Of a stretch of 50,469 nt of DNA, positions 23,585 through 45,922 are shown piece after piece. The stretch is from the NCBI GenBank assembly GCA_963743305.1, contig CAVUPH010000005.1:1-50469 (forward strand), in the 5' to 3' direction. Every line of letters begins with the position of its first letter. Position 1 is the stretch's first letter. Source of the DNA: an uncultured delta proteobacterium (lineage in GTDB: Bacteria > Desulfobacterota > RBG-13-43-22). Both the position numbers and the translations under genes were made by a program. The notes under the pieces were generated by a model, which was given only the letters and a program-made list of their open reading frames with translations, ran no database searches and was not told the origin of the DNA.

Positions 23585-23613
23585 TTGACCGGCCTTCTCT
23601 TGTCAGGTATGAT
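23585..23613 (+). promoter_or_regulatory. Sigma-70 promoter TTGACC-N17-TATGAT
   Basis: Near-consensus hexamers with a 17-nt spacer, 24 nt before ATG 23638. Confidence 0.7.
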
Positions 23614-23637
23614 TAAGTTATAAGGAATCTTTAGTCT

Positions 23638-25725
23638 ATGGCTCTTTCTCCATTTTCACAAACCATCAATACCTATTGCGCCCGTATGGATCACGGGGGC
23701 TGTGGTCTGCGGGTTACCGCCGAAAACGGGAAAATCACCCGTATCCAAGGCGACCCGCAGTCGCCTATCAGCCGCGGCTATATCTGTCCCAAAGGCCTGG
23801 CCGGGGCCGCGCGGAACACCCATCCCGACCGGCTGACCACGCCGCTGATCCGGGAAGGCGATCGAGGCGCAGGCCGTTGGAAAAGCGTATCCTGGGCCGA
23901 AGCCCTGGAGTATATCGCCGGTCATTTGAATAAAATCCGCGAAGACTACGGCCCCCAAGCCGTGGTCTTCGCCCAGGGGGCGCCTAAAGGGCTGGAACAT
24001 TTTGTCCTGATCCGCCTGGCCAACGTCTTCGGTTCCCCCAACGTCTGCGGCCCCCAGAACGTCTGCCACCTGCCCCGGGAACTGGCCGGAGTCATGACCG
24101 CCGGTTTTTTCCCGGTCCCGGACTATGATTCCCCCACGAGTCTAATCCTCAACTGGGGCAGCAACCTGCTGAAATCCAACGAGGAAGGCATCATTGCCTC
24201 CCGCCTGGTAGGTTCGCTGAAACGCGGGGCGGACCTGATCGTCATCGACCCCCGGCGCACACATCTGGCCGAAATCGCCCAGAGTCACCTGCAGCTCCGT
24301 CCCGGAAGCGACGGGATTCTGGCCCTGGGTCTGCTGCGGGTTATCCTGCGGGAAGGTCTTTATGACCGGGAGTTCGTGGACCAATGGACCGTTGGTTTCG
24401 AGGAACTGAAGCAGCAGGTGGAACCCTATACGCCCGAACGGGTGGCCGAGCTGTCCTGGCTGGAACCCCAGGAGATCATCCACACCGCCTGGACGTACGC
24501 CACCTCCAAACCGGCCTTGATTCAATGGGGAAACGCTCTCGAACATACGGAGAACAGCTTTCAGACCTGCCGGGCACTTCTTTGCCTCATGGCCGTGACC
24601 GGGAATCTGGACGTGCCGGGAGGGAATATCCTTCCGGAAATGCCCCCGGTGGCTCGCCTGGCTGATTTCGTCAAGGCCTCGCTCCTGCCGGATAAGGTTC
24701 AAAAAATGATCAGCCGGCACTATAAGCTGGCCCCTAATTTCATGATCGTTCCCCCTCCTCTGGTCGTGCAAGCCATTCGTCAGGCCAGGCCCTATCCGGT
24801 CCGGGCCATGTACGTCCAGGTGTCTAATCCCCTGCTGACCTACAGCCAGGCCCGGGAAACCCATGAAGCCCTAAAGGATCTGGATTTTCTGGTGGTGGCG
24901 GATATCTTTATGACCCCTACGGCCGCCCTGGCCGACGTGGTCCTCCCGGCCGCCACGGGTTTTGAATTTGACGACCTCGGCCACTATGGGCTGGCCCACG
25001 GGTGGATTTCGGCCAGGCCGAAGATCGTTGATCCTCCGGGAGAGGCTTGGCCGGACATCCGGATCTTAAGCGAACTGGGACGGGCCCTCGGCCACGGCGA
25101 ACATTTTTGGGAGGATTATCACCAGGCCCTCGAAGAGGTGCTGGCCCCATCCGGCCTGACTTATGAAAAATTCAGGGACCAGGGGCTCTTAAAAGGGAAT
25201 ATAAATTACTTTAACTATCTGGCCAAAGGCTTTAAAACTCCATCGAAAAAAGTGGAACTTTTTTCGGCTCAGCTTTCGAAATGGGATTTCGCCCCCCTGC
25301 CGACATTCGGGGATCCCCTTCCGCCCAGCCTGGAATATCCCCTGCTGGCCACCAGCAGGAAGAGCCCCTATTTCTTCCATTCCGCCTATCGTCAGATTGC
25401 CTCCTTGAGAAAAAAACACCCGGACCCGGTGATCGAAATTCATCCCCTGGCGGCCCGGATTCTCGGCCTTCAGGAGGGCGAATGGGCGGCCATAGTGACT
25501 CCCCAGGGAAGAATCACCCAGAAGGTTCGCTTGACCGAGGCAATCGATCCCCGGGTAGTCTATGTCGATTACGGCTGGTGGTTTCCGGAGGCCGGCCCGG
25601 ATCGGCTTTTTGATTGGGACCGATCCAATATCAATATCCTCACCGCTAACCAGCCCTTGGGCCGGGAAATGGGAACCCCCTGCCTCCGCGCCTTTCCCTG
25701 CCGAGTGGAGAAGATAGTCTCCTAG
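23638..25725 (+). CDS. Mo/W-bis-PGD oxidoreductase, acetylene-hydratase-like clade, cytoplasmic
   Basis: CARMDHGGC...ICPKG Fe-S motif, RLTTPL, VIDPRRT, GNLDVPGG, TPTAALADVVLPA and a C-terminal molybdopterin dinucleotide-binding domain; no Tat signal. Confidence 0.9.
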   Translation: MALSPFSQTINTYCARMDHGGCGLRVTAENGKITRIQGDPQSPISRGYICPKGLAGAARNTHPDRLTTPLIREGDRGAGRWKSVSWAEALEYIAGHLNKIREDYGPQAVVFAQGAPKGLEHFVLIRLANVFGSPNVCGPQNVCHLPRELAGVMTAGFFPVPDYDSPTSLILNWGSNLLKSNEEGIIASRLVGSLKRGADLIVIDPRRTHLAEIAQSHLQLRPGSDGILALGLLRVILREGLYDREFVDQWTVGFEELKQQVEPYTPERVAELSWLEPQEIIHTAWTYATSKPALIQWGNALEHTENSFQTCRALLCLMAVTGNLDVPGGNILPEMPPVARLADFVKASLLPDKVQKMISRHYKLAPNFMIVPPPLVVQAIRQARPYPVRAMYVQVSNPLLTYSQARETHEALKDLDFLVVADIFMTPTAALADVVLPAATGFEFDDLGHYGLAHGWISARPKIVDPPGEAWPDIRILSELGRALGHGEHFWEDYHQALEEVLAPSGLTYEKFRDQGLLKGNINYFNYLAKGFKTPSKKVELFSAQLSKWDFAPLPTFGDPLPPSLEYPLLATSRKSPYFFHSAYRQIASLRKKHPDPVIEIHPLAARILGLQEGEWAAIVTPQGRITQKVRLTEAIDPRVVYVDYGWWFPEAGPDRLFDWDRSNINILTANQPLGREMGTPCLRAFPCRVEKIVS

Positions 25726-25785: not shown

Positions 25786-27573
25786 CTACCCGCTGAAAAA
25801 GGTGTAGCGGTTTTTCCCTTCCCGCTTGGAGCGATAAAGGGTCCGGTCGGCATTGCGAATTAATTCTTCCATGGTCGTACCCTGGTAGGGAAAAAAGGCG
25901 ACCCCGAAACTCAAGGTCAGCGTCTCGTGTTGAAGGAGGATTTCTTCCCTGTTCCGGTATGCGGCCACGGCCTTTTGAATGCGCTCGATGATCTGCACCG
26001 TTTCGTTTTGATCGGTATAGGGCAGGATAACTACGAATTCGTCTCCCCCGTAACGGGCCGACAGATCGATTTCCCGAATGTTTTTCTTTATCAATTGGGC
26101 CAGCGCTTTGATAATCAAATCCCCGGCTAGATGCCCGAAGCGATCATTGATATTCTTGAAATCGTCAATGTCGATGATCATCAGGCCGAGAGGATAGCGT
26201 TGCCGTTCCGCCCGTTTAATTTCCATTTCCAGGAATTTCTTGAAGTAGGTCTGATTATGCAGGCCGGTCAATCCATCGTAGATAGCGGAATTGAGCGCCC
26301 GCTCAAAATTATCCCGGAGTTGGTCTATATAGTGCTTTTTTTTGACCAGGACCTTAACCCGGGCTTTCAATTCCCGTCCGTTAATGGGTTTAATCAGGTA
26401 ATCATCGGCCCCCTGTTCTACCCCCTTGATTTTGTTTTCCAGGTCAGGCAGGCAGGTGAGCAAGACGACCTGGAGGTCCTGAGTTTGATGCAGGCCCTTG
26501 ATCCGTTGGCAGACTTCAAATCCGTCCACCCCGGGCAACAGGACGTCCAGCAAAACCAGATCAAAGTCCTCCTGTTGAATTCGATCCAGGGCCGCCTCAC
26601 CGGTATTCACGGTTTCCAGTTCATAGGGCTCCGTGGCGAAATACTCCTGGATCATGCGGGCATCCTTATCATCATCTTCGACAATTAATATCTTCACCGG
26701 AGGGTGAACCCATTCCGCGAGGTGCGGGGTATTCTGATCGCTGGAAAAACCTTTTTCGGAGAGCGTTCGGGAACGTAGTTGCTCCCGGAAATATTTCAAC
26801 CGCAAGAGCGAGTTGATCCGGGCCAGCAGTTCAATGGTGTTCACCGGCTTGTTCAGGAATTCATCGGCCCCGGCTTCAAACCCCTTGATCTTATCGTCCG
26901 TCCCGTCCAGGGCGGTAACCAGGATGATGGGGATATCCTGAGTGGCCGGATTGGTCTTCAGCCAGTGACTGACCTCGTACCCGTTCATCTCCGGCATCAT
27001 GATGTCCAGCAGGATCAGGTCCGGGGGGTCTTTTAAGGTCATCCTCAGGGCATCCTGACCGCTGAAGGCCGCTGTGGTTTCGAATTGGTCCGGCGGCAGC
27101 TTGGAGGCCAACAACTTCACATTCAAGGGGTCGTCATCGACAATCAAAATGTGCCTTCTCAGACTGAACAAATCTCTTTCGGGCTGGACCTCCGGGCTAG
27201 GGGCGTGATTCAGGTACTCCCTGACCGACTCCATAAAAGTCCGGGTGTTGATCGGTTTGGTGATATACCCGCAACAACCGGCCTCCTGGGCCTGATCTCA
27301 TCTCCGGGCATGGCGTATGAGGTGAGGGCCACCACCGGAATATTCCGAGTCTCCTGGTTTAACTTTATCTCCCGGGTGGCCTCCAGCCCGTCGGATCCCC
27401 GGAAGCTGAATATCCATTAGAATTAAATCGGGCTGGTGGAGGGAGGCCATTTGGATCCCCTTCTCGGCATCTTCCGCTTCCAAGACTCGATATCCGCCCA
27501 AGGATAGTAAACTGCGAACCAATTTCAGGTTCAAGGCGTTGTCCTCTATCACTAAAATCGTTGTTTCTTTCAT
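25786..27573 (-). CDS. REC-REC-REC-GGDEF diguanylate cyclase (DivK-like receiver fused to PleD-like protein; compensating indels ~27393 and ~27293)
   Basis: The 27573 and 27234 ORFs share a frame. The intervening DNA reads IDGLEAT...IPVVALTSYAMPGDE then AQEAGCCGYITKPINTRTFMESVREYL, running straight into the PleD part. RYGGDEF active site and REID I-site. Confidence 0.85.
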
Positions 27574-27601
27574 TGATTCACCCTTCCATCCGGAGAATTC
27601 T

Positions 27602-30190
27602 CTACGGCATCAATCTACCGCTGGTTTCTAGAATAAACCGCGCTTTCGGGAGCGTAAAGGAAAAAATGGCCCCCGGACCTTCAGCCCGGCGCGCGGCCTG
27701 AATACGGCCCCCGTGCAGTTCCACCAGACGTCTGGTCAGCGAAAGTCCCAGGCCGGTTCCCTGATATTTCCGCCTGCTGGAATTATCCCCCTGTTCAAAG
27801 GGTTGAAAAATTCGTTCCAGGTCGGCTTCCGGCAGACCGATTCCGGTGTCACTGACGATGATCTCAACCCCCTTCCCATCCAGACCTCGGGCCCCCAATT
27901 CTACCTTACCCCCATCGGGTGTAAATTTAACCGCGTTGGAAAGCAGGTTATAGAGAATTTGTTTCAGCTTCCTTTCGTCCGCCTGAATCGTAGAAGGGAT
28001 TCCCTGAAAACGAGAAGTGAGCGATATCCGGTGTTTCAGGGCATTTTCCTTGACCATGGTGAGGCTATCCCGCAATAGCGCTTCGAAGGGGATTTCCGAG
28101 GCCTCCAGGATCATCTTCCCGGCCTCCACCTTGGAGAGGTCCAGTATATCGTTAATCAGGGCTAACAAATGACGGCTGCTTTGAAGGATATCGCCCAGAT
28201 ATTCATCCTGGATGGCGTTTAGCGCCCCGAAGTGCCGGTCGGAAAGTAACTCGGAAAAGCCAATGATATGATTTAAAGGGGTCCGAAGTTCGTGACTCAT
28301 ATTGGCCAAAAACGCACTTTTGGCTCGATTGGAGGTTTCGGCGGTCTCCTTGGCTTTTTGCAACTGGATTTCAGTCTGTTTCCGTTCTTGGATCTCTTGG
28401 ATCAAATCACGGTTGATTTGGTCCAACTCCGCCGTTCTTTCCTCCACCCTCTTTTCCAATTGGTCATGGGCCCTTTGAAGCGCTTCCTGGGCGTGTTTTC
28501 GTGCGGTAATATCGCTGGCGGCCAACTGAAACCCGGAAGGAATCCCTTCCCCTTCCGCCAGCCGGGCGTCCATTTCGATCCATTTCCGGCTTCCATCCTT
28601 CAGAACCACCTCCATCTCCATGGGAATGGAAGGGGCGCCGGATAGTCTCTCAGCCATGCGGTTAATCACAATTTGTCGGTCTCCCTCGGAAAAGAATCCT
28701 AGAGACAATCCATTCTTACCGATCACCTCTTTTCGCGGGGTTCCGGTAACCTCCTCGAACCTCCGATTGACGTATTGGATCAATCCCTGGCTGTCGATGT
28801 TCACCAATCCGATCGGGGCTTCTTCCATCAAGGTCCGATATCTCTCTTCCGACTCCTGAAGGGACTTTTCAGCCTGCCGGCGTTCATTCATTTCCTGCTG
28901 CATGGCTTTATTTGTTTCACTCAGCATCCGCCCCTGCTCCTCAACGGTATTAAAAGCATTCGAAAAGCGTAAGGAAAGAAAAAAGGACTGGGAAAAAATA
29001 AAAAGAAAAAGCCCCAGGTAAACAAACTGCCCGGTGGCGACGAGGGAATGATCGTAAAGAATGTCATTGGTCAACGCGGCAATCAGCAGCAGCAATCCCG
29101 AAAAAAGAATGCCGGCCCCGGGCCGTTTTCGATGCCTGGCCAAACCCAGGACCATCAGGACATAGGCCCCGGCGATCAGGGTCAGGAAATGGTAGATGGG
29201 AATGGTATACGAATAAAAAGCGGCTTTGGTAAAAAGGACTACCAGGGCCAGGGCCAGGATGGCTCCCTGGAGTAACCGAAGCAACCGTTTGTTCACTTCC
29301 TGCCGGAAGAGGGAATGAATGAAGGCTAAGAAAACGGGGACGCTCAAAAAGGAACTTAAGTTAGTGAGTTTAACTCTGAACTCCCAATCGGTGTAAGGGA
29401 ACAGATCCAGGAAGTATCTTTCCCCGGCCAGGAGAGTATAGAGAGCAATCAGAAGACAGAAAAGACCAAAATGCAAAGAAGCCCGGTCCTTTCTTCGCAA
29501 CAGAAATAGCCCCAGGTGGTACAATCCCATGATGAAGATGCTGCCGCAGAGAAAGAGCTGAAAGGCCAGGCTCCGCTCCCGCATCTGCCGGATATCCCTT
29601 TCGCTCCCGAGCCAGATGTGCTCGGTGGCGCCTCCTTTGCGATGGTAAAAATTGGAAACCTGGAGAATTAAATCCAGGTGATCGCTTCCCGGTTGAAAGG
29701 CGACCACTTGAGGCCTCCATTCGGGAACCATGCTGGCGCGGCTTATTCCGACCCGGCCGGCTGAAGCCATCATTTTTCCGTTTACATAAAGGGTATAGGC
29801 GGTGCCCAGAGATAAGAACTTAAAGGCCAGGGGGATTCGATTCGGCCTCATCAGCACCCGGAGACGATAGGTGGCATACCCCATCCCGGATATTTTTCTG
29901 CCATCCACCTCCCGACCGTTCCAGGTCCCGGGGACGGTCTGGTATTCCCTCTTCTCGGGCGGATTTCCATTTACAAAATCCTCCGGACCATAAAGCCTAT
30001 CCCAATAGAATTCCCATAGGCCGTTCAGCGTGACCGGACCCTGGACAACCGGGTCCCAATTCCGCAGATCGAGGACTCCTTTTTCCGGTGAAAGGGCACT
30101 AAATCCCGAGCTGTTTCCCGATCCGCTGATCTGGGCCAGAGAAACAAAACAAATGCCGATCAATAAAATGGGGATTATCCGTTTTCTCAT
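27602..30190 (-). CDS. Sensor histidine kinase: periplasmic sugar-binding-like domain + 7TM-DISM + PAS + HisKA + HATPase
   Basis: LNGLWEFYW and GYATYRL (DISM extracellular/jelly-roll motifs), about 7 TM with [25 protein letters not shown]. Confidence 0.88.
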   Translation of the reverse strand: MRKRIIPILLIGICFVSLAQISGSGNSSGFSALSPEKGVLDLRNWDPVVQGPVTLNGLWEFYWDRLYGPEDFVNGNPPEKREYQTVPGTWNGREVDGRKISGMGYATYRLRVLMRPNRIPLAFKFLSLGTAYTLYVNGKMMASAGRVGISRASMVPEWRPQVVAFQPGSDHLDLILQVSNFYHRKGGATEHIWLGSERDIRQMRERSLAFQLFLCGSIFIMGLYHLGLFLLRRKDRASLHFGLFCLLIALYTLLAGERYFLDLFPYTDWEFRVKLTNLSSFLSVPVFLAFIHSLFRQEVNKRLLRLLQGAILALALVVLFTKAAFYSYTIPIYHFLTLIAGAYVLMVLGLARHRKRPGAGILFSGLLLLIAALTNDILYDHSLVATGQFVYLGLFLFIFSQSFFLSLRFSNAFNTVEEQGRMLSETNKAMQQEMNERRQAEKSLQESEERYRTLMEEAPIGLVNIDSQGLIQYVNRRFEEVTGTPRKEVIGKNGLSLGFFSEGDRQIVINRMAERLSGAPSIPMEMEVVLKDGSRKWIEMDARLAEGEGIPSGFQLAASDITARKHAQEALQRAHDQLEKRVEERTAELDQINRDLIQEIQERKQTEIQLQKAKETAETSNRAKSAFLANMSHELRTPLNHIIGFSELLSDRHFGALNAIQDEYLGDILQSSRHLLALINDILDLSKVEAGKMILEASEIPFEALLRDSLTMVKENALKHRISLTSRFQGIPSTIQADERKLKQILYNLLSNAVKFTPDGGKVELGARGLDGKGVEIIVSDTGIGLPEADLERIFQPFEQGDNSSRRKYQGTGLGLSLTRRLVELHGGRIQAARRAEGPGAIFSFTLPKARFILETSGRLMP

Positions 30191-30232
30191 TTGAGGATTC
30201 AGGTGGTTCCTCCGAGAGAAACCTGTCCGGGC

Positions 30233-32191
30233 TCAGGCGGAATCTGTCCCATAAACGTCCCTCTCCGAGGGCAGCACAAAGTGAAAGGCACTGCCTTGAC
30301 CTTGGCCTTCACTCTCGGCCCAGATCCGTCCGCCGTGAAGTTCAACTATTTTCTTGGTCAGGGACAGTCCCAGACCGGTTCCATGGGATTTGCGACCAGT
30401 CGAATGCTCCACCTGTTCGAAGGGCTGAAAGATCCGTTCCAGATCCCCCGGCGCCAACCCGATCCCTGAATCAATGACGCTGAAACGAAGTCCTTTTTCC
30501 TCGGCTGAACCCTCGTTTTCCGGAGAGACCCGAATCCGAATCGTTCCCCCCGCGGGAGTGAATTTAACGGCATTGGATAACAGGTTATACAGGATCTGTT
30601 TCAGCTTGCGTTCATCGGCTGGAAAAGATTCCGGCCGGTCGGGGATTTCGGTCATCAGCGTAAGCCGTTGTTTCAGGGCTTTTTCCTTCACCATGGTCAG
30701 ACTATTATCGATCAACGGCCGCAGGAAGACCGTGGAGGGGATCAAATCCATCTTCCCGGCCTCCACCTTCGACAGGTCCAGGATCTCATTGATCAGGGCC
30801 AATAGATGGCGACTGCTCTGGAGCACGTCATTTAGGAATTCATCCTGCTTAGGGCTTAATTCGCCGAAATTCTTATCCACCACCAGTTCCGTGAACCCGA
30901 TGATATGATTTAGCGGAGTTCGCAACTCATGACTCATATTGGCCAGGAATTCACTCTTGGCCCGGTTGGCGGCTTCGGCGATCATCTTGGCCTGCGCTAA
31001 TTGCTCGACCTTTTTCCGTTCGGAAATATCACGGGAAACGCCCAGAATCCCCACCGGTCGCCCGGATTCGTCTCGTATGAAGGAAGCCCTCATCTCGGCC
31101 CAGGCAAAGGTTCCATCTTTGCATCTCTGTTGGACTTCTATAATCCGGGATCGCGTGGCCTCCGCGTTCCCGGCGGCTTCTTCCTCCAACTCCTCGGCCA
31201 GAGCTTGATAGACCCCTGGCAAGGATGTCGGGGACAGGGTTTCTTCCACACTCATCTCCAGGGCTTCGGCCACGGTATACCCGCGCATTTCTTGCACCGA
31301 TGGACTGACATAGGTGAATTTCATGGAGGCCAGGTCCATAGTCCAAATGGTGTCGGTCACATTTTCGGCTAAGAGCCGATACCTGGCTTCTGAATCTTTA
31401 AGGTTGGATAATGAGGCTTCCAACTGCTGCCGGGATGCTTGCATTTGCTGAGTGAGTTGCCCCAAATCAAAGGCTAGTTTTCTGCTCTCCTCATACTTTT
31501 CTTGGATGATCCGATTGGCCTCCTGCAGGTCCTCTATGGCCCGTGTATACACCTGATAGCGACGAAACAACCGCTTCCCCAACGATGGCCGCCTCCCGGG
31601 GTCCCAGCGTACGCGGTAAAAACACCCTTTTGTTTCAGACTCTGATCGGTCTAACATCAGTTCGCGGCTTGGTTCTTCAGCAGCGACTTGACATGCGATT
31701 TCGTCCACCTGGGCCAGCGGCATATTGAATAGGGTCGGAATCCCAGCCAGGATCCCCCGGGTATATTCGCAATCTAAGGGAGTTTTTTGGTTAGGCTTAA
31801 AGTAGCGGTCTTCCAAAAGTACCCAGGAATCCCCCTTTTCGTGAATCCGGACTTCGCCAATGGCATATAAAAGTCGACTGTACCTTGGGGCCTGGGTGTA
31901 AATGAGTCGTGGACTGCCCACCAACCGGGCCAGTCGGTCCAGGATTCCAAAGGATTGAAACCGCTCGGAGGAAAGGGCCATCTTATAGACCGCATTTTCG
32001 TCCCCCAGGATGGCAATCATTTTCCGGTAGAGCGTTTGGAGAAAGGCGTGGGGGATCCAGTTGTTGGGGTCCGTCAAATACGGTTCATCATAGACAGCTC
32101 CATCCAAAAGCGGCCCCAACGAACCGTTGTTTCTTTCCCTAACATACAAGATCAAGGTCCGGGTAATTCGGCAACTGATTTCTCTATCCAA
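30233..32191 (-). CDS. Cytoplasmic sensor histidine kinase: H-NOX/V4R-like N-domain + PAS + HisKA + HATPase
   Basis: No TM segment; N-domain EISCR...DPNNWI...CEYTRG...C...CFYRVRW; PAS; [13 protein letters not shown] at 32191 is my preferred start (track start 32323 overlaps the upstream gene). Confidence 0.8.
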   Translation of the reverse strand: MDREISCRITRTLILYVRERNNGSLGPLLDGAVYDEPYLTDPNNWIPHAFLQTLYRKMIAILGDENAVYKMALSSERFQSFGILDRLARLVGSPRLIYTQAPRYSRLLYAIGEVRIHEKGDSWVLLEDRYFKPNQKTPLDCEYTRGILAGIPTLFNMPLAQVDEIACQVAAEEPSRELMLDRSESETKGCFYRVRWDPGRRPSLGKRLFRRYQVYTRAIEDLQEANRIIQEKYEESRKLAFDLGQLTQQMQASRQQLEASLSNLKDSEARYRLLAENVTDTIWTMDLASMKFTYVSPSVQEMRGYTVAEALEMSVEETLSPTSLPGVYQALAEELEEEAAGNAEATRSRIIEVQQRCKDGTFAWAEMRASFIRDESGRPVGILGVSRDISERKKVEQLAQAKMIAEAANRAKSEFLANMSHELRTPLNHIIGFTELVVDKNFGELSPKQDEFLNDVLQSSRHLLALINEILDLSKVEAGKMDLIPSTVFLRPLIDNSLTMVKEKALKQRLTLMTEIPDRPESFPADERKLKQILYNLLSNAVKFTPAGGTIRIRVSPENEGSAEEKGLRFSVIDSGIGLAPGDLERIFQPFEQVEHSTGRKSHGTGLGLSLTKKIVELHGGRIWAESEGQGQGSAFHFVLPSERDVYGTDSA

Positions 32192-32294
32192 TCGGCCAAC
32201 CCCGATTTCCAGCGCAGAGTTATTGGGTTGCCCCCTTGACAGCTCTAAATTAGCCAAAAAAATACCTTTCCCCGTCTTTTTAAAATGAACTTGA

Positions 32295-32693
32295 TCAGAC
32301 CTCGAGGGTCGGCGGCTTTCCACCTAGATATCCGGCGATGGTCTCCAAAAAGGACCGAACCTCAATCGGTTTGGCTATAAAACCGGAAAACCCTAACCCA
32401 TCGGGAGACTCTCCAATATCTACCGATCCAAATCCGGTCAAGGCGACCACCGGGATGGACCGCAGTTTTTCATCCTCCTTAAGGACGGCGGTGGCCTCGA
32501 TACCGTCCATGCCCGGGAGCTGCAAATCCATGAGGATGAGGTCGGGAAGGTGTTCCCGGGCCAATTGCAGGCCCGCTTCCGCGTCACGGGCGGTCAGGAT
32601 CTGATAATTTCCCAAACGGAGGACGGCCACCACCAATTTCATATTGAGTTCATTGTCTTCCACGATCAAGATGGTTTTTGCTTCGATGCCCAT
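32295..32693 (-). CDS. Single-domain response regulator, DivK-like
   Basis: ILIVEDNELNMKL, PDLILMDLQLPGMDG, IPVVALT and KPI motifs. Confidence 0.9.
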   Translation of the reverse strand: MGIEAKTILIVEDNELNMKLVVAVLRLGNYQILTARDAEAGLQLAREHLPDLILMDLQLPGMDGIEATAVLKEDEKLRSIPVVALTGFGSVDIGESPDGLGFSGFIAKPIEVRSFLETIAGYLGGKPPTLEV

Positions 32694-34364
32694 TTATGAT
32701 TCCTCGCCTTTTTTGCTCGGTTCCGCACCGGGCTTCCTTTTCCGGACCGGTATCGAACAAGGTAACACAAAATGGAAGGCGCTGCCTTTCCCCTCCCCCT
32801 CACTGACGGCCCAGATTCTCCCGGCCTGGAGTTCAACCATTTTCCTGGTCAGGGCCAATCCCAGACCGGTCCCTTGGAATTTGCGGCTGGCCGAATTGTC
32901 CACCTGTTCGAAAGGCTTGAAGATACGTTCCAAGTCCCCCGGCGCCAACCCGATGCCCGAATCGATGACACTGAAACGAAGTCCTTGCTTTCCGTCTGGA
33001 ACCCCGTTCTCCGGGGAGATCCGAACGTCAATGGTTCCCCCTGGAGGAGTGAATTTGACGGCATTGGACAACAGGTTATAAAGGACTTGTTTCAGCTTGC
33101 GTTCATCGGCCTGAATGGATTCCACCTGATCGGTGATTTCGGCATGCAGTTTAAGACGTTGTTTGAGCGCTTTTTCCTTAATCATAATCAGGCTGTTATT
33201 CACCAACGGCCTCAGGAAGACCAGGGACAGGTTCAGTTCCATTTTCCCGGCCTCCACCTTCGAAAGGTCCAGGATCTCATTGATCAGGGCCAGGAGATGA
33301 CGTCCGCTCTGGAGCACATCGTTCAGGAATTCTTCCTGTTTAGGGTTTAATTGGCCGAAATTTCCGTCGACCACCAGTTCCGTAAAACCGAGAATGTGAT
33401 TCAGCGGGGTTCGCAGCTCATGGCTCATATTGGCCAGGAATTCACTTTTGGCCCGACTGGCGGCTTCGGCGCTCTCCTTGGCCCGGATCAGGTCGTCGTT
33501 GGTCCTGGCCAGATCGGCCGTTCGATCGCTTACCCGTTGCTCCAATTCATCATGGGCTTGCTGCAACGCCTCCTCGGCCCGTTCCCTTTCTTTCAATTGG
33601 TGCTGTAACTCCCGGTTCCGAATTTCCAATTGGATCTGAGCCTGCCGGAGCGCCGTCTCCCGCTCTTGGATCCGGCCGACCATTTCATTGAACCGCTCGG
33701 TTAAAAAACTGATTTCATCGTTCCCCTTTACTTCGACCCGAAGGGAATAATCCTGTTTTTCGGAAATCTGGCGGGTCACTTCGGATAGAACCAGAATAGG
33801 TCCGGAGATGACCTTTTGCAGTTTAGTGGCTAACAGGTAGGAGATCAGGGCGGCCAAACTTACGAACACGACGGCGATAAGGGTAAACCGGGAGGACCGA
33901 TCCTGAAAGGCCTTAAGGTCGGAATGCAGGAAAAGAGTGCCCATTCGCTCCCCTTCCAAGCGAATCGGCCGGAAGGAAATTAAACGGTCTGCCTGAAAAA
34001 AAAGTCCGTCCTTCCCCAGCTTTTCCGTTATTCGCCCTTGGGCCAACCCGTCACGTTGGTAGGTGGAGAATAAGGTCCCCGTCCGATCGTAAAGGGCGGC
34101 GGCAACGATATGTTTTTCCGCCTTCAAAGCCTCCAGCGTACGGGAAGCGCTGCCGGCATCGGAAAAAGTGAGGGCGGCCACGCTGTTGTCGCTGATAATC
34201 GCCCCCAGGGTTTCCAGATCGGTAACCATTTTACGCTTGAAATAAGAATGGTCGAAAATGCCAATCGGCACCAGGGCAAAAATCAGGGCCAGAAAGCTGA
34301 TCCCCATGATCAGGGCAACGATCTTATTCCGAATGGTACTTCGATTTCTAAAAAAGGGCCGCAT
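32694..34364 (-). CDS. Membrane sensor kinase with YfiN-type periplasmic (CHASE8-like) domain + HAMP + HisKA + HATPase
   Basis: TM1, [10 protein letters not shown]...LEALKA...AALYD..G..FSTY periplasmic motif, TM2, HAMP (DYSLRV..DEI..L..FNEM), [10 protein letters not shown]. Confidence 0.85.
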
Positions 34365-34385
34365 CCTTGATTCCTGTCAGGGGGA

Positions 34386-34934
34386 TCACTGAATAATTTT
34401 GGCTAATTTCAGGAGCTGGGAGCTGACTTTTAGTTTGCTGCGCTGGACCGTATCCAAGTTGATCTCGAAGTTAATAGTATTATCCACCGCCACCAAGCCG
34501 ATCATCCCCCCCTGGGGAGCAAAGCGATCGATGTCACTGACCGTCAATATGGGATGATTCTTCACCGCCGCCAAGATCGGGCGCAGGGCGCCTTTCTCCG
34601 ATCCGCTGATAAAAAGGATTTGGCAGTCTTCGAAATTTTCCAGACGAGAAAGCCGCCGGATAACCAATTTCCGTCCCTTGACTGTTTTATCCTTAAGGGT
34701 TTCCAAGAGGGATCCAAAAGGGTCAACGCCCACGATCCCCAGCACCAGGGGAGTGGTCTCGTTTCTAAACGATTCCGATGGCCAATCCACGAATTTGGCA
34801 AAGTTATACAAAAAAGCCGCTTTCACCGCGTATTCTCGGGATTCCTCCGCTTCGCCCCTGGCCCCTCCAAGACCGAACAGGCATCCCCAAAACACAAGCC
34901 AGATGGTGAACCTGTTAAGGTTAATATATCGCAT
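34386..34934 (-). CDS. yfiR: YfiR-family (DUF4154) periplasmic protein
   Basis: EYAVKAAFLYNFAKFVDWP, GVDPFG, ILTVSD, GGMIGL, FEINL and SSQLLKLA. Confidence 0.9.
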   Translation of the reverse strand: MRYINLNRFTIWLVFWGCLFGLGGARGEAEESREYAVKAAFLYNFAKFVDWPSESFRNETTPLVLGIVGVDPFGSLLETLKDKTVKGRKLVIRRLSRLENFEDCQILFISGSEKGALRPILAAVKNHPILTVSDIDRFAPQGGMIGLVAVDNTINFEINLDTVQRSKLKVSSQLLKLAKIIQ

Positions 34935-35011
34935 TAGAACCTCAAGTCCGCGGCGAGCTGCCATGAAGCCCAAAAAAACGAATAACTTCGGTGTTCGATT
35001 TCACTATCACC

Positions 35012-37130
35012 CTAAAACTGCCAGGTCAGTTTGCCGTAAACACCGCGCTGCATCTCATAGACCTGCGTGCTGAATTGTTCCGGGCGAAACTCCTGATGCC
35101 GGTCTTCCAACAAATTCTGTCCCACCAGGGCCAGTTCCAGATTTTTTATCGGCCGCCAGGCCAGTTTCAAATCCAGGGTGAAATAACTGGGCACACCGCC
35201 GTTATCAAACCCGTCCACATAGCGCAGCCAGGCATCCGCTTCGATGTTTTTTCCCAGATTCATACCGGAACGCACCGAGAATTGATGGCGGGGCAGGCTT
35301 TGATTTTGAGCTTCGGTTAACGTGACGGCTTTGATCGATTTTCATTTCGGCGAAGGTATACGATCCCTTTATCCGCCACCAATCCAGGGGCTGCCATTCC
35401 AGGGCCAGTTCCACCCCGTAGATATCCGCATTGAGGTTATTATTGAGATCAAGGGTGCTCAGCAAGTAGGGGTTCCCCTCGCTGAAGGCCAGTGTCGGCG
35501 GGGTATCAGGGACATTGGTGGAAGAGCGGAGCTTGCTATAGCGGTTGTAATATCCTGCCAGATCGAAGGTCAGGCGGTCGATCGGCCGCAACCGGTAACC
35601 CAGTTCATAGGCGATCAATTCCTCCGATTGGAAATTCGAGTTCCCCTTGATCTGAACCTGGATCGGCAAGGGACCGGGGTTCCCGCCCTGGCCGGGCGGG
35701 ATGACCGCCACATTGGTCGTCACGGTCTGTTCCGCGCGTGAAGGGGTCCGGACGGAACGGGATACAGCCCCCCAGACCGATTGCTCTTTCGATGGCGTCC
35801 AGATCAGACGGGTGCTGGGCTGCACTTCAAACCCGGTATAATCGTTATGTTCGAATTTGGAACCGATCACCCAACGCAGCCGGTCCTTAATAAGCGTAAT
35901 ATCATCCTGGATAAAGGCGCTGAACAACTGATCGGTGCGGCTGGAAGGATTTATAGTTCTTAGAATCAGTATCCTTGATATTATCCCGAGTGACCCGGTA
36001 CCCCAATCCCCAGACGATTTCCTGACCGCCGATCCATTTGAAGCGGTGCTGCAAATCGAAATCAAGGGTGTCTCGATCTTCCGCAGCAAAGGCATCCTGC
36101 GCTCCGTCCGGTCGTAGTAGGTCTGCAGGTTGATCTCGGAATTGTTTGAAATAACATGCTTCCACCGGCCGAGGATATTGCCGCCGGCCATATCCGGTTT
36201 TTCCTGGAAACTCTTGGTAAAAGGCGGGGACAGGGAAGAGATATCATAGGTCGAGCCCGACTTGCCCCGGTAGTAATCGCCTTGCAGGGTAAAGTTGTTT
36301 TGAGCGGAGGGTTCATGGTCCAACCGGAAGCCGGTCCGGAATTGGTCCCAGTCGTCGGCGGCCGTCGCACCCGAGCTGGTAACTGAGGCGTCCCGGTTAA
36401 AATATTTGACATAAGCCCGGGCATCCGAGTGCTCACCCAGCTTCAGACCGTAGCGGAAAGATCCAAAACCCTTTTCTTCCGTTCCGGCCCCCACCGTAGC
36501 CAGACCCCCCCGGGTCTCCCCGGCCTTCTTGGTGATGATATTGATTACCCCGTTGACGGCGTTGGCCCCCCAGAGGGTGGCCCCCGGCCCCCGGATGACC
36601 TCGATCCGGTCGATGTCTTCCAGGAGCGTATCCTGGACGTCCCACCAGACGCCTGAAAATACAGGGGAATAAACAGACCGGCCGTCCATCAGGACCAGCA
36701 GTTTGGTGGCAAAACGGCTGTTGAACCCCCGGGCGCTGATGGCCCATTTGTTGGCGTCGATGCGGGCCACCTCCACCCCGGGGGCCATCCGCAGTGCTTC
36801 GGGGATGCTGGTCACCCCGGAACGGCGGATGTCTTCCTGGGTGATGACAAAGATGGCCGACGGGGCGTCGGAGAGTTGCTCACCCTTCTTGGAAACCGAG
36901 GTGACCTCGATGCGCATGAGGTCTTCCAGACTGAGCTGAGTCAGATCTTTGACGGGTGACGAAGCCCAGCCATTGACCGTCAGGGAAAGAAGGACCACCA
37001 AAAACGCCAGGGCTGTTCGGGCCGGCGGTCGCCCGATCAATAGCCTGGTCCGTCCATAAGCCCTTATATAAAGAGCATAAAAACTTGTTTCCCGCCGAGT
37101 CCCCTCACTTTTTTCCCTTTTCCGATCCAT
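35012..37130 (-). CDS. TonB-dependent receptor-like outer-membrane protein (frameshifts ~36085, ~35960, ~35320)
   Basis: Plug motifs (LSLEDLM..EVTSVSKK, ISARGF, LVLMDGR, IDRIEVIRGPGATLWGANAVNGVINII); beta-barrel; C-terminal ...KLTWQF. Confidence 0.9.
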
Positions 37131-37180
37131 AGTCACTCCTTTTCCAAGGGGCATAACATTCAATAGTTCTTTTAAATAGT

Positions 37181-37196
37181 TGCAATTCATGTGCCT
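37181..37196 (-). promoter_or_regulatory. Sigma-54 (-24/-12) promoter candidate
   Basis: Minus strand AGGCACATGAATTGCA = GG-N10-GC, ~50 nt upstream of the receptor ATG (AAAGGAG SD). Confidence 0.6.
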
Positions 37197-37344
37197 GCTC
37201 ATGATTAGCTCTCTGGGGTCTGGAGATTTCCCCGAAATTATCTGCCGGAATGAGAAATCGGTCAGTTGTCTTTCCCCTTCATCGCTCAATCGGTCTTTTG
37301 AAAAATACCAAGGCCGCTCCGTCGATAATCCTGGCCTCCCCCGT

Positions 37345-37905
37345 TCAGGGCAGTGTCGTTACGATTTTGGCCAGTTTTAAAAGTTGAAAACTAACCTCTA
37401 TTCTTGTCGGTTTGATGGCCTCCAGATTGAATTCCAGCTTGATCTTCTCGTCTACGGTCACCAGTCCGATCATTCCTCCGGCTTCGGCAAAATGAGCTAA
37501 GTCGCTCACGGTTAACACCGGCCGCCCCCTCAACCCCGCTAAAATGGACTTCAGATGTGACTTTTCCGAGGGACTGATATAGACCATCTGTCCCTCTTCC
37601 GGTTGGTCCAAACGTTTGGCATATTTGATGATTAGGGGCCGCCCCTTGACCAGTTTATTCCGAATGGCCTCGGTGGCCGATCCAAAAGGATCGGTTCCAT
37701 AAATTAGTAATATAAATGGGGCGGTATCGTTTTTGAATGTCCCGGCAGGGTAGTCCATGAATTTGGCCAAGTTATAGAGGAAACCGGCCTTGATCAGGTA
37801 TTCCCGATTTTCCTGGGCCTGTACCGAAAAGGACGATAACCCGATCGTAATAAACATCACCACCATCAGGACCATTCTTCTGATTTTTGTCAGATAGTTT
37901 TCCAC
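37345..37905 (-). CDS. yfiR: YfiR-family (DUF4154) periplasmic protein, second paralog
   Basis: EYLIKAGFLYNLAKF, GTDPFG, VLTVSD, GGMIGL and QLLKLA. Confidence 0.88.
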   Translation of the reverse strand: MENYLTKIRRMVLMVVMFITIGLSSFSVQAQENREYLIKAGFLYNLAKFMDYPAGTFKNDTAPFILLIYGTDPFGSATEAIRNKLVKGRPLIIKYAKRLDQPEEGQMVYISPSEKSHLKSILAGLRGRPVLTVSDLAHFAEAGGMIGLVTVDEKIKLEFNLEAIKPTRIEVSFQLLKLAKIVTTLP

Positions 37906-37992
37906 TGTCTATTTACGGTATTTCCAGGCCCGAGGCGAGAACCAAAGAAGCCTGAATGATTCTATTATCAAACACGGACCAGCCTTTCGCCA

Positions 37993-40002
37993 TTAGAATC
38001 TGTAAGTCAGCTTAACCCGAAAGCTGCGTCCATCCTGGGGAATTTGGGCTTGGCGGAAATCTTCGGAGACGGGGTCCCCGTAGGCATAGTCAAAAAGGTT
38101 GTAGATGCTGGCTGAAAAATCCAGGTTTTTCCAAATCCTGGGGGCAAACAGGGTCAGGTTGGTGATCCAGAGCGCATCGGTTGCGCTTCCGGTCAGGGTC
38201 TTTCGCGAACTCATGTACCGCTGTTCCAGCCCGGCAAAAAACTTCTCTTTAACGATCGGAGCGGTTAGGTTGAGCTTGATCATGTGCCGCGGAGAATTGG
38301 ATAGTTCAGCCCCGTTTTCCTGAACCCGCGTTTCTTGGTAAGTGTAACTGAGCCGGCCCTCCCAGCCGTTGGGCCAACGGCCGTTCAGAGCCAGCTCTAT
38401 TCCCTTGGCTTCAATGGGTTTGGCGTTTTCAAAGGTCGTCGAGTTATCGGTAGGGTCCACCTTTTCATCGATCAGGTTGTCGATTTGGTAATAGTAAAAC
38501 GAGCACAATCCTCGGAGGGTTTTGCTGAATTGCTGTTCCACCACGAGTTCATAGGTTTGGATAGTTTCCGGTTTAAGTTCCGGATTGCCCTTCTGTGTGG
38601 TTGAAAAATAATAGAGTTCAAAATTTTGAGGTGCTCGGAAGGCCCTTCCGTAAAGGAGTTTGAGGGTCGTATTGTCGGCGGGGTTGAAAATGACGGCTCC
38701 CCGGGGATTGGTGGTGGCGCCGAAAGTACTGTAATAGTCATAACGCAACCCGAAATTGAGGGCCAGCCGCTGAGTCAGGTAATAATCCCCCTGAACGTAG
38801 GTTCCCCAGAAGGTCGAATTTCGACGGTCATCCAAATATCGGGTATAGGGGTCGATGTCATAATTCCCTTGGTCCTGCTGGAGGTTGAGCGTGTATTCCA
38901 TCCCTAAAGTCAGCTTCAGATTTCCCCGGATCACTTTAGTGGCCTTAATCTCCGTCCCAGCCCACTGGCCATAGGTATAATCCTTGTTTAAGGTACGGGG
39001 AGGGTAATCATACAGATAATGGCCGTAATAGGAGTAATAGTCATAGAAAAGCCGGGCCAGGACATCCCACTCCCGGCCGAAGGATTTTTCATAGCGCAAA
39101 TCCAGATAGGCCCTTTCATCCGTGGTAAAGGTTTCCGTGTTATTAAAGATGGTGCCAAACGCGGCGGTCGGTATGGCCTTCCAACGGTATTGGTAGGCCC
39201 CCACCAGGGTCAGTTCCTTCCAAGAGCCCTTGGTAAAAAGACTTCTGGATTGGTCCTGGTCGCGGTTCGGGACTCGCCCGTTGTTGGTGGCCGGGTCGTC
39301 GAACTCCCTGAAATGAAGATTCCGCTGTCCCTGACTTTCCAGGTAGGAGCCGGACAGCAGGAAATCCGTCTGTCCGGGTTGATTACGATACCCATAGCTC
39401 ATTCGCCCGTTATACGTTTCAAAAGTCCCTACGGCCCCGGAAACTTCGACCCCTTTCAGATCCTTCCCTTTCCTGGTGAAGATATTGATGACCCCAAAAA
39501 AAGCGCTGTCCCCATACAGGGAGGATCTGGGACCCCGGATAATCTCCACCCGATCGATCAAATCCAGATCGACAGGGAAGTCGGTACCGATAGGGGCCTG
39601 AGAGTAGAGATTATCATTAAGCTTGTGGCCGTCCACCAACATCAGGATACGCGAATTGTAGTCACTGGGCCGTCCGAAGCCCCGAACGCCAACATAACTA
39701 TAATTTCGATCATAGGTGGTGTAAAAACCAGGGACGCTGTTCAGCAGCTCAGCCAGGGTCCTCCACCCGTAGTGCTGGATATCCCGGCTGGTTAGAACGG
39801 TCACCGAGGAAGGGGCCTCTTTTATTTTCTGAAGATACCGCGAGGCCCCGTATACGCTGGTGATCCTCAAGTCCATCAATTCCTCAATTCCCAGGGCGGC
39901 CACATCCGGCAACTCTTCTTTTTCCTGGGCACTTGAGGAAAAAGGGAAGGTAGTCAGCGACAAAAGAAAAATTAGACTGAATATCAATAAATGGACATTC
40001 AT
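37993..40002 (-). CDS. TonB-dependent receptor-like outer-membrane protein, second paralog
   Basis: Signal peptide, LGIEELM..ITSVYGASR, VRGF, IDRVEIIRGP.SSLYG...GVINI, NLFD and terminal ...KLTYRF. Confidence 0.93.
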   Translation of the reverse strand: MNVHLLIFSLIFLLSLTTFPFSSSAQEKEELPDVAALGIEELMDLRITSVYGASRYLQKIKEAPSSVTVLTSRDIQHYGWRTLAELLNSVPGFYTTYDRNYSYVGVRGFGRPSDYNSRILMLVDGHKLNDNLYSQAPIGTDFPVDLDLIDRVEIIRGPRSSLYGDSAFFGVINIFTRKGKDLKGVEVSGAVGTFETYNGRMSYGYRNQPGQTDFLLSGSYLESQGQRNLHFREFDDPATNNGRVPNRDQDQSRSLFTKGSWKELTLVGAYQYRWKAIPTAAFGTIFNNTETFTTDERAYLDLRYEKSFGREWDVLARLFYDYYSYYGHYLYDYPPRTLNKDYTYGQWAGTEIKATKVIRGNLKLTLGMEYTLNLQQDQGNYDIDPYTRYLDDRRNSTFWGTYVQGDYYLTQRLALNFGLRYDYYSTFGATTNPRGAVIFNPADNTTLKLLYGRAFRAPQNFELYYFSTTQKGNPELKPETIQTYELVVEQQFSKTLRGLCSFYYYQIDNLIDEKVDPTDNSTTFENAKPIEAKGIELALNGRWPNGWEGRLSYTYQETRVQENGAELSNSPRHMIKLNLTAPIVKEKFFAGLEQRYMSSRKTLTGSATDALWITNLTLFAPRIWKNLDFSASIYNLFDYAYGDPVSEDFRQAQIPQDGRSFRVKLTYRF

Positions 40003-40254
40003 CCATCTTTTGTTGATTAACCATTGGATCCGAACGGCATCGATGAGGGTGGCCAGGCCAACGAGGGGAGGATCTATTCTTGTCCATTTCGCTCTCTGGG
40101 ATTTCCCTTGAGGTTATGATTTTTTCCTAACGGAAGGCCTTCATTTAGACGAGCTTCGACAACTTTTCGTGGTGGTGCCGTATCAATTCCAAGGCCAAGC
40201 CAAGGGTCTTCCCTAGCGGTTGTCAGCCGGAAATTGAACTTCCCCTTGGGCTTT

Positions 40255-40272
40255 ATGCACAAATTCTGCCAA
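40255..40272 (-). promoter_or_regulatory. Sigma-54 (-24/-12) promoter candidate for the whole signalling cluster
   Basis: Minus strand TTGGCAGAATTTGTGCAT = TGGC...GG-N10-GC, with an AT-rich tract upstream. Confidence 0.65.
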
Positions 40273-40623: not shown

Positions 40624-41691
40624 ATGCCCCCTACTTTCAGAAAACGATCACAAAAAACCGGGCTGCCGCCGGGGGCCTTAATTCACGTGGGCGAGCAGAA
40701 GAGCGAGCGGACCCGCATCACCCTGCTGGATTATGACGAACAGCACGTGGAGGAAAAAGAGCTTCCGGTGGTCGAGGAATGTCTCCTCTCCAAGGATAAA
40801 GAATCAGTCACCTGGATCAACGTGAGCGGTTTGCACCAGGTAGAACTCCTGGAAAGGTTAAACGACTGCTTCGGACTCCATCCCCTGGTCCTGGAAGACA
40901 TTTTAAATACGGATCAACGCCCCAAAATGGAGGACTTCGGGGATTATCTATATATCGTCCTGAGGATGCTGGACTTGGACAAAAAGAATGAAAATGCCAT
41001 TGTCAGCGAGCAGATCAGCCTGATTCTGGGTAAGAATTTTGTTTTGACCTTTCAGGAAAAGGAGGGGGACCTTTTTGACCCCTTGAGGGCACGTATCCGC
41101 AACGGCAAGGGCCGGTTGAGAAAAATGGGACCTGATTACCTGGTGCACGCCCTTTTGGACGCCATTGTGGACCAGTATTTCGTGGTGCTGGAAAAACTGG
41201 GGGAGCGTATAGAATTCCTGGAAGAAGAATTGGTTACCCGACCTACCCCTTCTACCCTCCAGATACTTCATAGATTAAAACGGGAGATGATCTTTTTACG
41301 CAAGTCGGTCTGGCCCCTGAGAGAAGTGGTCGGGACTTTGGAAAGGGGTGAATCTTCTCTAATCCAGGCCTCCACTAACTTGTATTTGCGTGACGTCTAC
41401 GACCACACCATTCAAGTCATCGACAATGTCGAGACTTTTCGCGACATGCTTTCCGGGATGCTCGATATTTATCTCTCCAGTATCAGCAACCGCATGAATG
41501 AAATCATGAAGGTCCTGACCATCATTTCCACCATTTTTATTCCTTTGACTTTCATCGTCGGCTTGTACGGCATGAATTTTAAATTTATGCCGGAATTGGA
41601 ATGGCCCTGGGGGTATCCCGCGGTCCTATTGCTGATGGTGGGGGTTACGGTCTTTATGCTCTTTTATTTCAGACGCAAAAAATGGCTTTAA
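40624..41691 (+). CDS. corA: Magnesium/cobalt transporter CorA
   Basis: LHPLVLEDI..TDQRPK, YGMNF..MPEL signature, two C-terminal TMs. Confidence 0.96.
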   Translation: MPPTFRKRSQKTGLPPGALIHVGEQKSERTRITLLDYDEQHVEEKELPVVEECLLSKDKESVTWINVSGLHQVELLERLNDCFGLHPLVLEDILNTDQRPKMEDFGDYLYIVLRMLDLDKKNENAIVSEQISLILGKNFVLTFQEKEGDLFDPLRARIRNGKGRLRKMGPDYLVHALLDAIVDQYFVVLEKLGERIEFLEEELVTRPTPSTLQILHRLKREMIFLRKSVWPLREVVGTLERGESSLIQASTNLYLRDVYDHTIQVIDNVETFRDMLSGMLDIYLSSISNRMNEIMKVLTIISTIFIPLTFIVGLYGMNFKFMPELEWPWGYPAVLLLMVGVTVFMLFYFRRKKWL

Positions 41692-41710
41692 AGGCCGTTA
41701 AAAAGGGAGG

Positions 41711-41825
41711 TTAGTAATTTAGGCCAGGATTCGAAGTCCGGAGTACCGTTGGAAAGCCCTTTCGCCGAGACCCCACGGCCAGACCGGATCTGGGGGGTAC
41801 TCACCCCAAAGGGCGAAGCGTCAAA
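41711..41825. repeat. Dispersed repeat family X, copy C (115 bp)
   Basis: About 86% identical to 3666-3780, same orientation, no gaps. Confidence 0.92.
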
Positions 41826-41893
41826 AAGGATTATACGTCCACCCGATAATAATCAGCCGTTTAGTTACCCAAAAAAACGCTTCATTAAACCAC

Positions 41894-45070: not shown

Positions 45071-45922
<852 letters not shown>

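Follow-up and report, generated by a model that had tools for sequence, protein, structure and literature searches.

The closest described relatives of the system presented here are YfiBNR (TpbB/DgcN; P. aeruginosa, E. coli) and HmsCDE (Yersinia), in which a DUF4154 gene resides beside the genes for a CHASE8-HAMP sensor and an outer-membrane partner. In YfiBNR the partner is the OmpA-like lipoprotein YfiB, and the output domain of the sensor YfiN is GGDEF (E. coli DgcN matches CHASE8 and GGDEF in Pfam). In Pseudomonas, YfiB binds a surface of YfiR made up of strand beta7, helices alpha3-alpha4, and helix alpha1 with its loop; YfiN is predicted to bind there as well (PMC4655355). The same arrangement, with exchanged parts, is found in a stretch of 50,469 nucleotides from an uncultured delta proteobacterium of the phylum Desulfobacterota (contig CAVUPH010000005.1; the whole stretch is hereafter called the window). 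There the outer-membrane partner is a TonB-dependent receptor, replaced in rare loci of other genomes by a MetA-type barrel, and the sensor output is HisKA-HATPase; the input arm is doubled, and the cysteine pairs of YfiR are missing. As in YfiBNR, the final output, judged from the genes, would be cyclic di-GMP (c-di-GMP). The locus is a real, duplicated member of an uncharacterized YfiBNR-like variant, the outer-membrane partners of which feature a conserved N-terminal peptide. Nine co-oriented open reading frames (ORFs) on the minus strand occupy positions 25786-40002 of the window, with domains assigned by Pfam and NCBIfam:

37993..40002, minus strand: TonB-dependent receptor 1, 669 aa, intact (Pfam Plug 3.5e-21, TonB_dep_Rec barrel 2.1e-46)
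39841..39909, minus strand: N-terminal periplasmic peptide of receptor 1 (...LGIEELMDLRITSV...; profile E 1.1e-6 and 7.1e-6)
37345..37905, minus strand: YfiR-like 1, DUF4154 (Pfam 3e-35), signal peptide, mature part without Cys
35015..37130 (ORF 35205-37289), minus strand: receptor 2, TOL_0244 type, Plug and barrel, frame broken near 36098, 35963 and 35326
36879..36950, minus strand: N-terminal peptide of receptor 2 (...DLTQLSLEDLMRIEVTSVSKK...; profile E 3.8e-13 and 2.1e-12)
34386..34973, minus strand: YfiR-like 2, DUF4154, TOL_0243 family (Pfam 9.4e-49; PDB YfiR 4zhy E 8.8e-8)
32694..34364, minus strand: CHASE8-HAMP-HisKA-HATPase kinase (Pfam; NF053592 205.7 bits)
32295..32693, minus strand: single-domain receiver (Pfam Response_reg 2.2e-22)
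30233..32323, minus strand: cytoplasmic H-NOX-like/PAS/HisKA-HATPase kinase (Pfam for PAS and kinase, AlphaFold2 (AF2)/Foldseek for the N-terminal domain)
27602..30190, minus strand: 7TMR-DISM membrane kinase with PAS (Pfam 7TMR-DISM_7TM 9.2e-26, PAS, HisKA, HATPase)
25786..27234, minus strand: PleD-type diguanylate cyclase, REC-REC-GGDEF (Pfam; NF007135 464.9 bits; GGDEF and RxxD I-site by eye)

A preliminary description of the window, made from its sequence alone, had listed nine co-oriented, closely spaced genes with these domains, and the list holds upon analysis of ORFs, Pfam and NCBIfam; DUF4154, CHASE8 and Plug were all matched in Pfam. Some items had to be corrected. The cyclase has two receivers by Pfam, not three; the locus does not extend to 40272, positions 40003-40272 being intergenic; and receptor 2 is not one intact frame, differing by three indels from a same-genus homologue. 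Intergenic distances range from -29 to 87 nt, except for 367 nt before the cyclase gene and 231 nt after receptor 2, the latter an artefact of the broken frame of receptor 2. The start of the single-domain receiver gene abuts the stop codon of the CHASE8 kinase gene, and its end overlaps the next kinase gene by 29 nt. The probable start of YfiR-like 2 is the ATG at 34934. By eye, the translations of the two receptors and of the two YfiR-like proteins each start with a signal peptide, and a membrane helix lies on either side of the CHASE8 domain of the kinase.

In the genome (4.9 Mb, 90% complete; 37,849 ORFs) DUF4154 is matched twice and CHASE8 once, always in the locus, so that two YfiR-like proteins face one CHASE8 sensor. 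Plug is matched three times: two matches reside in the locus, the third is a BtuB-like receptor beside exbB-exbD-tonB on contig 26, where the one clear TonB_C of the genome is found together with exbBD-like genes. The absence of yfiB, claimed earlier for the locus, extends to the whole of this 90% complete genome, in which the best match to the YfiB model NF053585 scores 74.4 bits against a cut-off of 128, and a yfiB elsewhere as the true partner was not found. The four OmpA-like ORFs of the genome resemble MotB/MotD (two), Pal, and a generic OmpA fragment. A sample of 301 genomes of the phylum, 48 with DUF4154, likewise yielded no YfiB above the NF053585 cut-off.

The trio of receptor, YfiR-like and CHASE8 kinase genes is found in this order in nine of ten loci of relatives, one of the nine being cut by a contig end; in the tenth (L017) the receptor was not seen in the 1.1 kb of contig sequence available. 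A wider survey, in which one genome per species was searched with an alignment of 14 YfiR-like proteins, gave at least 600 stretches, at least 567 of them confirmed. The best 78 loci were analyzed, and come from Desulfobacterota, Nitrospirota, Acidobacteriota, Verrucomicrobiota, Planctomycetota, Proteobacteria and other phyla. The same-strand upstream ORF (75 scanned, three loci having none) encodes a TonB-dependent receptor in 70 cases, a plug-less Phenol_MetA_deg-type barrel in three (L027:5661-6920, L041:4414-5706, L066:6209-6937), and nothing of the kind in two. Downstream ORFs were found in 73 loci, five loci having none, and 68 were scanned, five being omitted because of a size limit or shortness. 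CHASE8 is present in 59 of the 68, a second receptor in five, something else in four; 54 of the 59 CHASE8 proteins have kinase domains, three end after PAS, two are GGDEF-EAL proteins. The adjacency of receptor and yfiR genes on which the earlier reading was built is thus strongly conserved. A same-strand GGDEF gene lies downstream in 16 of the 78 loci, at least 5 kb of downstream sequence being available for 58 of the 78.

Doubled arms, regarded earlier as a special form, were found also in L028, L036, L084 and, within the same genus, in L008. The latter (G001:C10:165000-184900) is a larger locus, with two receptor 1 copies and a REC-HD-type (HD_5) gene upstream; it also has one more YfiR-like gene and, between the arms, one more kinase, of 693 residues, in which Pfam finds no sensor domain. 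The trio is already modelled in NCBIfam (NF053590, TOL_0244 family TonB-dependent receptor; NF053591, TOL_0243 family YfiR-like protein; NF053592, YfiR-like-associated sensor kinase), with the same gene order and families, the library giving names and no mechanism. The literature searches retrieved no paper on the trio or on how it works.

The outer-membrane proteins encoded in these loci share a short peptide, with consensus DLTxLSLExLMNxxVTSVSK, located directly after the signal peptide and running into the expected TonB-box position, of which it forms an upstream extension. A strand-like stretch (...RITSV... / ...IEVTSVS...) was recognized by eye at the TonB-box position. A strict regular expression, which matched 41 of the 75 upstream ORFs only, was replaced by a profile of 26 columns built from 42 loci. 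The profile matches 66 of the 75 ORFs, 63 with a score of at least 14.7 bits, although for the 42 sequences used in training a match follows by construction; the nine ORFs missed are either cut at the N-terminus (seven) or do not encode outer-membrane proteins (two). Both window receptors have the peptide, as do the plug-less MetA-type barrels of L027 and L041, the two that have a complete N-terminus.

The peptide is specific to proteins linked to YfiR-like genes. Among the 37,849 ORFs of the genome it resides on the two locus receptors only (E 2e-12 and 7e-6; next best E 1.8). In four other genomes it was found on the one receptor linked to DUF4154, and on none of 19 unlinked receptors. The 301 genomes of the phylum contain 64 matches, spread over 42 genomes; 56 of them lie on the same strand as a DUF4154 gene and at most 9 kb from it, 46 being the adjacent upstream gene. 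DUF4154 is present in 39 of the 42 peptide-bearing genomes, and nine genomes have DUF4154 without a peptide match. Of the eight exceptions, five reside in fragmented genomes with DUF4154 on another contig, three in genomes without DUF4154. Two of these three are marginal matches; the third (G013:C191:7519-7584, E 5e-6), in a 590-residue frame of a 100%-complete genome without DUF4154 match, is a possible exception to the link between peptide and YfiR. Gene order is reversed in one family of the phylum, where a peptide-bearing frame lies right after the DUF4154 gene (G118:C1:843555-844210, G210:C15:8135-8808, G268:C38:18589-19244), the frame being just 122 residues long in two of the three.

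In the predicted structure of receptor 1 the peptide is the sole long stretch of low confidence (residues 18-58, predicted local distance difference test score (pLDDT) below 50), and features one short helix and one short strand. A docking motif would be expected to be strongly conserved, specific to its partner and flexible, as the peptide is. A likeness of the peptide to the N-terminal linker of YfiB was also considered and dropped: no match to the profile was obtained in E. coli YfiB, even with E values up to 1000 admitted. The peptide sets the locus apart from FecA/FecR/FecI systems. The receptors of the latter have an STN signalling domain, those of the locus have only about 20 residues of peptide and, both of them, no Pfam STN match; no FecR- or sigma-like gene was found among the flanking ORFs scanned, and a soluble periplasmic go-between and a histidine kinase replace the anti-sigma and ECF sigma factors.

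Near-invariant residues of the YfiR-like proteins cluster in the N-terminal and C-terminal segments. In a pairwise alignment to PDB YfiR, inspected by eye, these residues correspond approximately to helix alpha1 plus loop, strand beta7 and helices alpha3-alpha4, and thus appear to lie on the partner-binding surface of YfiR. The disulfide cysteines are not kept, the C145-C152 pair being missing from the alignment. The two proteins belong to DUF4154 at the Pfam level only, scoring 52 and 31 bits on the YfiR equivalog NF053586 (cut-off 85). On NF053591 (cut-off 125 bits) YfiR-like 2 passes with 157.5 bits, and YfiR-like 1 stays just under with 118.

The two receptors of the window are about 23% identical overall. 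The model of receptor 1 (AF2 pLDDT 87.3) is a 22-strand barrel with plug; its best Foldseek match is BtuB (1nqg, E 2e-37, template-modelling (TM) score 0.87 on target), with PqqU, Cir and ChuA as further structural neighbours. On NF053590 (cut-off 645 bits) receptor 1 scores 136 bits, and belongs to a different receptor clade. Receptor 2 reaches 552.9 bits over profile positions 1-505 of 604, and falls short of the cut-off because the rest of its barrel lies in another frame. The namesake of NF053590, TOL_0244 of Thalassolituus oleivorans, has the N-terminal peptide and a YfiR-like neighbour, TOL_0243 (PMC6304351, Table S1). TOL_0244 is up about sevenfold on n-C28 and was read by the authors as an uptake protein; TOL_0243 was detected only on n-C28 (PMC6304351, Table S1). 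OmpS (B5T_01485) of Alcanivorax dieselolei B-5 is 40.3% similar to TOL_0244 (PMC6304351), and is described as an essential alkane sensor and chemotaxis trigger (PMC9788540). The source organism of the window is, in contrast, of the anaerobic, sulfate-reducer type, and nothing points to alkanes as ligand.

Receptor 2 was compared with a same-genus homologue of 706 aa, 85% identical at the DNA level, by tblastn and DNA alignment. Reading from its likely start (ATG near 37130), it lacks one nucleotide near 36098 and two near 35963, and has one nucleotide too many near 35326. Some 45 codons between the two deletions are out of frame, and the last 109 residues or so, ending near 35015, are displaced to another frame after the insertion; the displaced frames still encode the conserved residues. 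As no public sequencing run contains the source strain (best word share 0.20), the frame was compared with contigs of relatives only. In contigs 90-97% alike, from three runs, the extra base near 35326 is missing in all four that cover the site, and in one of these contigs the changes at 36096 and 35965 compensate each other. Small indels are numerous in the assembly, and further genes are broken alike. An ABC-3 (ZnuB-like) permease gene (window 44016-45012, minus strand) is split into two overlapping ORFs, and on contig 26, at about 41500-46500, the genes for the BtuB-like third receptor, an amino-acid permease and the cobalamin pathway are broken up into numerous frame pieces. Since other genes are broken in the same way, and related contigs keep the frame, the breaks are probably assembly errors. 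It is very unlikely that receptor 2 is a true pseudogene, and that the block, its first arm deprived of a kinase, is partly non-functional. Such decay would explain both the three indels and the lack in the window of the extra kinase that follows the first arm in the same-genus genome, but it is at odds with the conserved residues encoded by the out-of-frame stretch, the intact frame of the related contigs at the sites covered, and the shattering of unrelated genes in the same assembly.

Contact between receptor and YfiR-like protein was evaluated by complex prediction and by co-divergence. Three predictions with mature receptor 1 and mature YfiR-like 1 scored 0.50, 0.50 and 0.54 (median 0.50), the best of three controls 0.00, with partner pLDDT of at least 81 and at least 62% of contacts shared between runs. 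Of 157 solved complexes 116 pass the mark used for such predictions, as do two of 215 mismatched pairs, but the passes with scores up to 0.60 comprise no more than 18 of the 157, together with both mismatches; these calibration counts hold roughly, custom 65-row alignments having been used here. The prediction gives weak support to a contact between receptor 1 and YfiR-like 1. In 48 receptor/YfiR-like/CHASE8 triples, distances among YfiR-like proteins correlate with those among CHASE8-HAMP regions (r 0.77; with the receptor controlled for, partial r 0.72, permutation p 0.001). This co-divergence would fit an interface between YfiR-like protein and CHASE8, with the receptor contacted via the invariant peptide only.

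Several results weigh against a handover from receptor to YfiR-like protein. YfiR-like and receptor distances in the same triples are not correlated (partial r -0.015, p 0.59), the mean YfiR distance being 0.553 within a receptor clade and 0.569 between clades, and the pattern of co-divergence fits no receptor contact equally well. Kinship confounds the mirror-tree and survey statistics, and inflates them; the link between peptide and DUF4154 could likewise stem in part from the common descent of the receptors. The complex prediction gave no contact map or interface, and a pass at 0.50 is, according to the tool, oftener wrong than right unless the pair is likely beforehand. The peptide covers the TonB-box position, and might serve TonB rather than the YfiR-like protein. 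The receptor is a complete BtuB-like transporter, which makes import possible, and receptor 2 reads as broken in the assembly. A receptor-YfiR fusion was not found in a search among longer proteins, a weak kind of negative. The five matches of this search comprise two tandem DUF4154 proteins (P0001, P0002), two single-DUF4154 proteins, and one fusion of DUF4154 to a CHASE8 kinase, a single member in which DUF4154 is truncated (profile positions 1-102 of 143). The tandem proteins may indicate that YfiR-like proteins act as dimers, in which case the two paralogues of the window could form a pair, or they may be artefacts in which gene calling has fused neighbouring genes.

The mechanism of the preliminary description, in which the CHASE8 kinase holds a YfiR-like go-between that the receptor takes up, is plausible and, unproven as it is, the best single reading of these data. 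The complex score (0.50 vs. 0.00) and the partner-specific peptide speak, the former weakly, for the binding or release of YfiR-like proteins by receptors, the lack of receptor co-variation against it. The peptide refines the scheme. We tentatively propose, at a little under an even chance for the scheme as a whole, that the locus is a YfiBNR-type envelope sensor with exchanged parts, wired into a multi-kinase phosphorelay, in which the peptide is the handover point; the binding steps, the direction of control and the ligand are those we infer. Each of the two outer-membrane receptors would have its own periplasmic YfiR-like protein. Both YfiR-like proteins would bind the periplasmic CHASE8 domain of the single inner-membrane kinase, fixing one signalling state, as YfiR does with YfiN. 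Upon ligand binding the receptor would expose its N-terminal peptide, the extended TonB-box region, and the exposed peptide would capture or release the YfiR-like protein, thereby switching the kinase. The three kinases would probably converge on the single-domain receiver and the PleD-type cyclase, with c-di-GMP as output.

The main rival to the handover is that the receptors are ordinary TonB-driven importers, and that the YfiR-like protein or CHASE8, once it has bound the incoming compound in the periplasm, switches the kinase, receptor and YfiR-like protein making no contact. The logic is that of SusC with hybrid two-component sensors. The full plug and 22-strand barrel of receptor 1, closest to BtuB, PqqU, Cir and ChuA, the presence of TonB and ExbBD in the genome, and the failure of YfiR-like proteins to co-vary with receptors all suit import, and so does the reading of alkane-induced TOL_0244 as an uptake protein (PMC6304351). 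YfiR has moreover been called a periplasmic binding protein, and its fold likened to the N-terminal domain of ABC-type binding proteins (PMC4655355). Against import stand the plug-less MetA-type barrels that replace the receptor in three of 75 loci, both of those with a whole N-terminus having the peptide, and the lack of the peptide in 19 of 19 unlinked receptors; the weak support for contact from complex prediction also speaks for the handover, and import followed by sensing is on the whole rather unlikely. It is improbable that the CHASE8 kinase and YfiR-like proteins sense the state of the envelope, the receptors being co-expressed cargo, or a target with a special TonB box for a dedicated TonB. 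The position of the peptide over the expected TonB box and the missing covariation could be so explained, as could the free swapping of receptor clades (two clades, 13 and 35 members, between-clade distance 0.79); yet the genes keep their order and stay adjacent in many phyla, barrels that are not receptors have the peptide, and no dedicated TonB was found in the loci examined, one clear TonB_C being present in the genome.

If the handover is accepted, a broader view can be formulated, which we consider doubtful: the peptide (20-25 residues) might be a portable docking tag, by which any outer-membrane barrel, whether of the two distant receptor clades or of MetA type, would hand a signal to a YfiR-like protein. 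The tag, exposed by ligand and possibly with the help of TonB at the overlapping TonB box, would take the YfiR-like protein from CHASE8. FecA/FecR/FecI and YfiBNR would thereby be joined by a third class of cell-surface signalling, a very widespread one, with kinases, cyclases or chemoreceptors as outputs; in the window two receptors would be multiplexed onto one kinase.

On the cytoplasmic side, the claim that the YfiN-type sensor has a kinase in place of GGDEF is borne out by Pfam, which finds CHASE8, HAMP, HisKA and HATPase; the protein passes NF053592 with 205.7 bits over residues 10-233 (cut-off 194). Pairwise identities among the DHp-CA cores of the three kinases are 73.5%, 58% and 60%, the H-box helix being nearly the same in all three; their identity to another kinase in the window is 23-25%. 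The similarity of the cores suggests that the three kinases share receiver partners. The single receiver and both cyclase receivers keep, by eye, the acidic pocket, the acceptor Asp, Thr and Lys. An output of c-di-GMP through a phosphorelay, as proposed earlier, in which phosphate would be transferred within the block, is plausible, and recurs in that GGDEF genes lie downstream in 16 of 78 loci. The arrangement resembles the DivJ/PleC - DivK/PleD system of Caulobacter in combining several kinases, here three whose cores are alike, with a single-domain receiver and a REC-REC-GGDEF cyclase, and differs from it in that the receiver lies outside the DivK family, the cyclase keeps the acceptor Asp in both receivers, and there is no cell-cycle link. 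The label DivK-like must be given up, the receiver scoring 47 bits on NF045717 (cut-off 160) and being a generic single-domain receiver. PleD-like can be kept for the architecture of the cyclase, its score on NF007135, the PleD family, being just below the cut-off (464.9 vs. 474 bits).

The PAS kinase starts with a domain of about 300 residues (residues 30-310; window 31394-32236, minus strand), which had been labelled H-NOX/V4R. The label is justified at the level of predicted fold: in the AF2 model (pLDDT 82.8) the best PDB match is the H-NOX protein 3eee_A (E 3.2e-5, TM 0.68 on target, 13% identity), followed by the sensor domains of VirS and DmpR. No Pfam HNOB match was obtained for this domain, and heme ligands were not identified in it. 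The domain has 240 homologues at E 1e-5 or less; the 120 listed are mostly 55-63% identical, and Pfam families found in them are only PAS, kinase or receiver domains. Three Cys residues are invariant and one is near-invariant, and the domain may serve Desulfobacterota/Syntrophales kinases in sensing a metal, redox state or a gas. Searches of the ESM Atlas gave unnamed clusters only (at most 0.81), no more than a lead.

Beside the locus, positions 15594-25725 encode [NiFe]-hydrogenase subunits, a molybdopterin oxidoreductase and also a hybrid kinase with PAS, in keeping with an anaerobic host of the sulfate-reducer type. Three overlapping ORFs at 9062-10875 (minus strand), one matching DUF6541, are probably one frameshifted gene for a membrane protein, and an 803-residue ORF without Pfam family lies at 5369-7780 (minus strand). 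No Rfam family was matched at the gathering threshold anywhere in the window. Promoters (13 vs. 9.3 +/- 3.6 in shuffled sequence) and terminators (22 vs. 22.1) predicted in the window were not above expectation.

The handover, if true, would connect the cell surface with two-component and c-di-GMP signalling in many phyla, many uncultured bacteria of soil, sediment and groundwater included, by a route undescribed in the literature searched. A small soluble adaptor and a short peptide tag would replace a dedicated signalling domain, and a function would be assigned to TonB-dependent receptors now annotated as nutrient importers. The occurrence of YfiR homologues in genomes without YfiB would also be accounted for. 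The locus described here would add that two input arms can share one kinase, and that three kinases with similar cores can share one cyclase.

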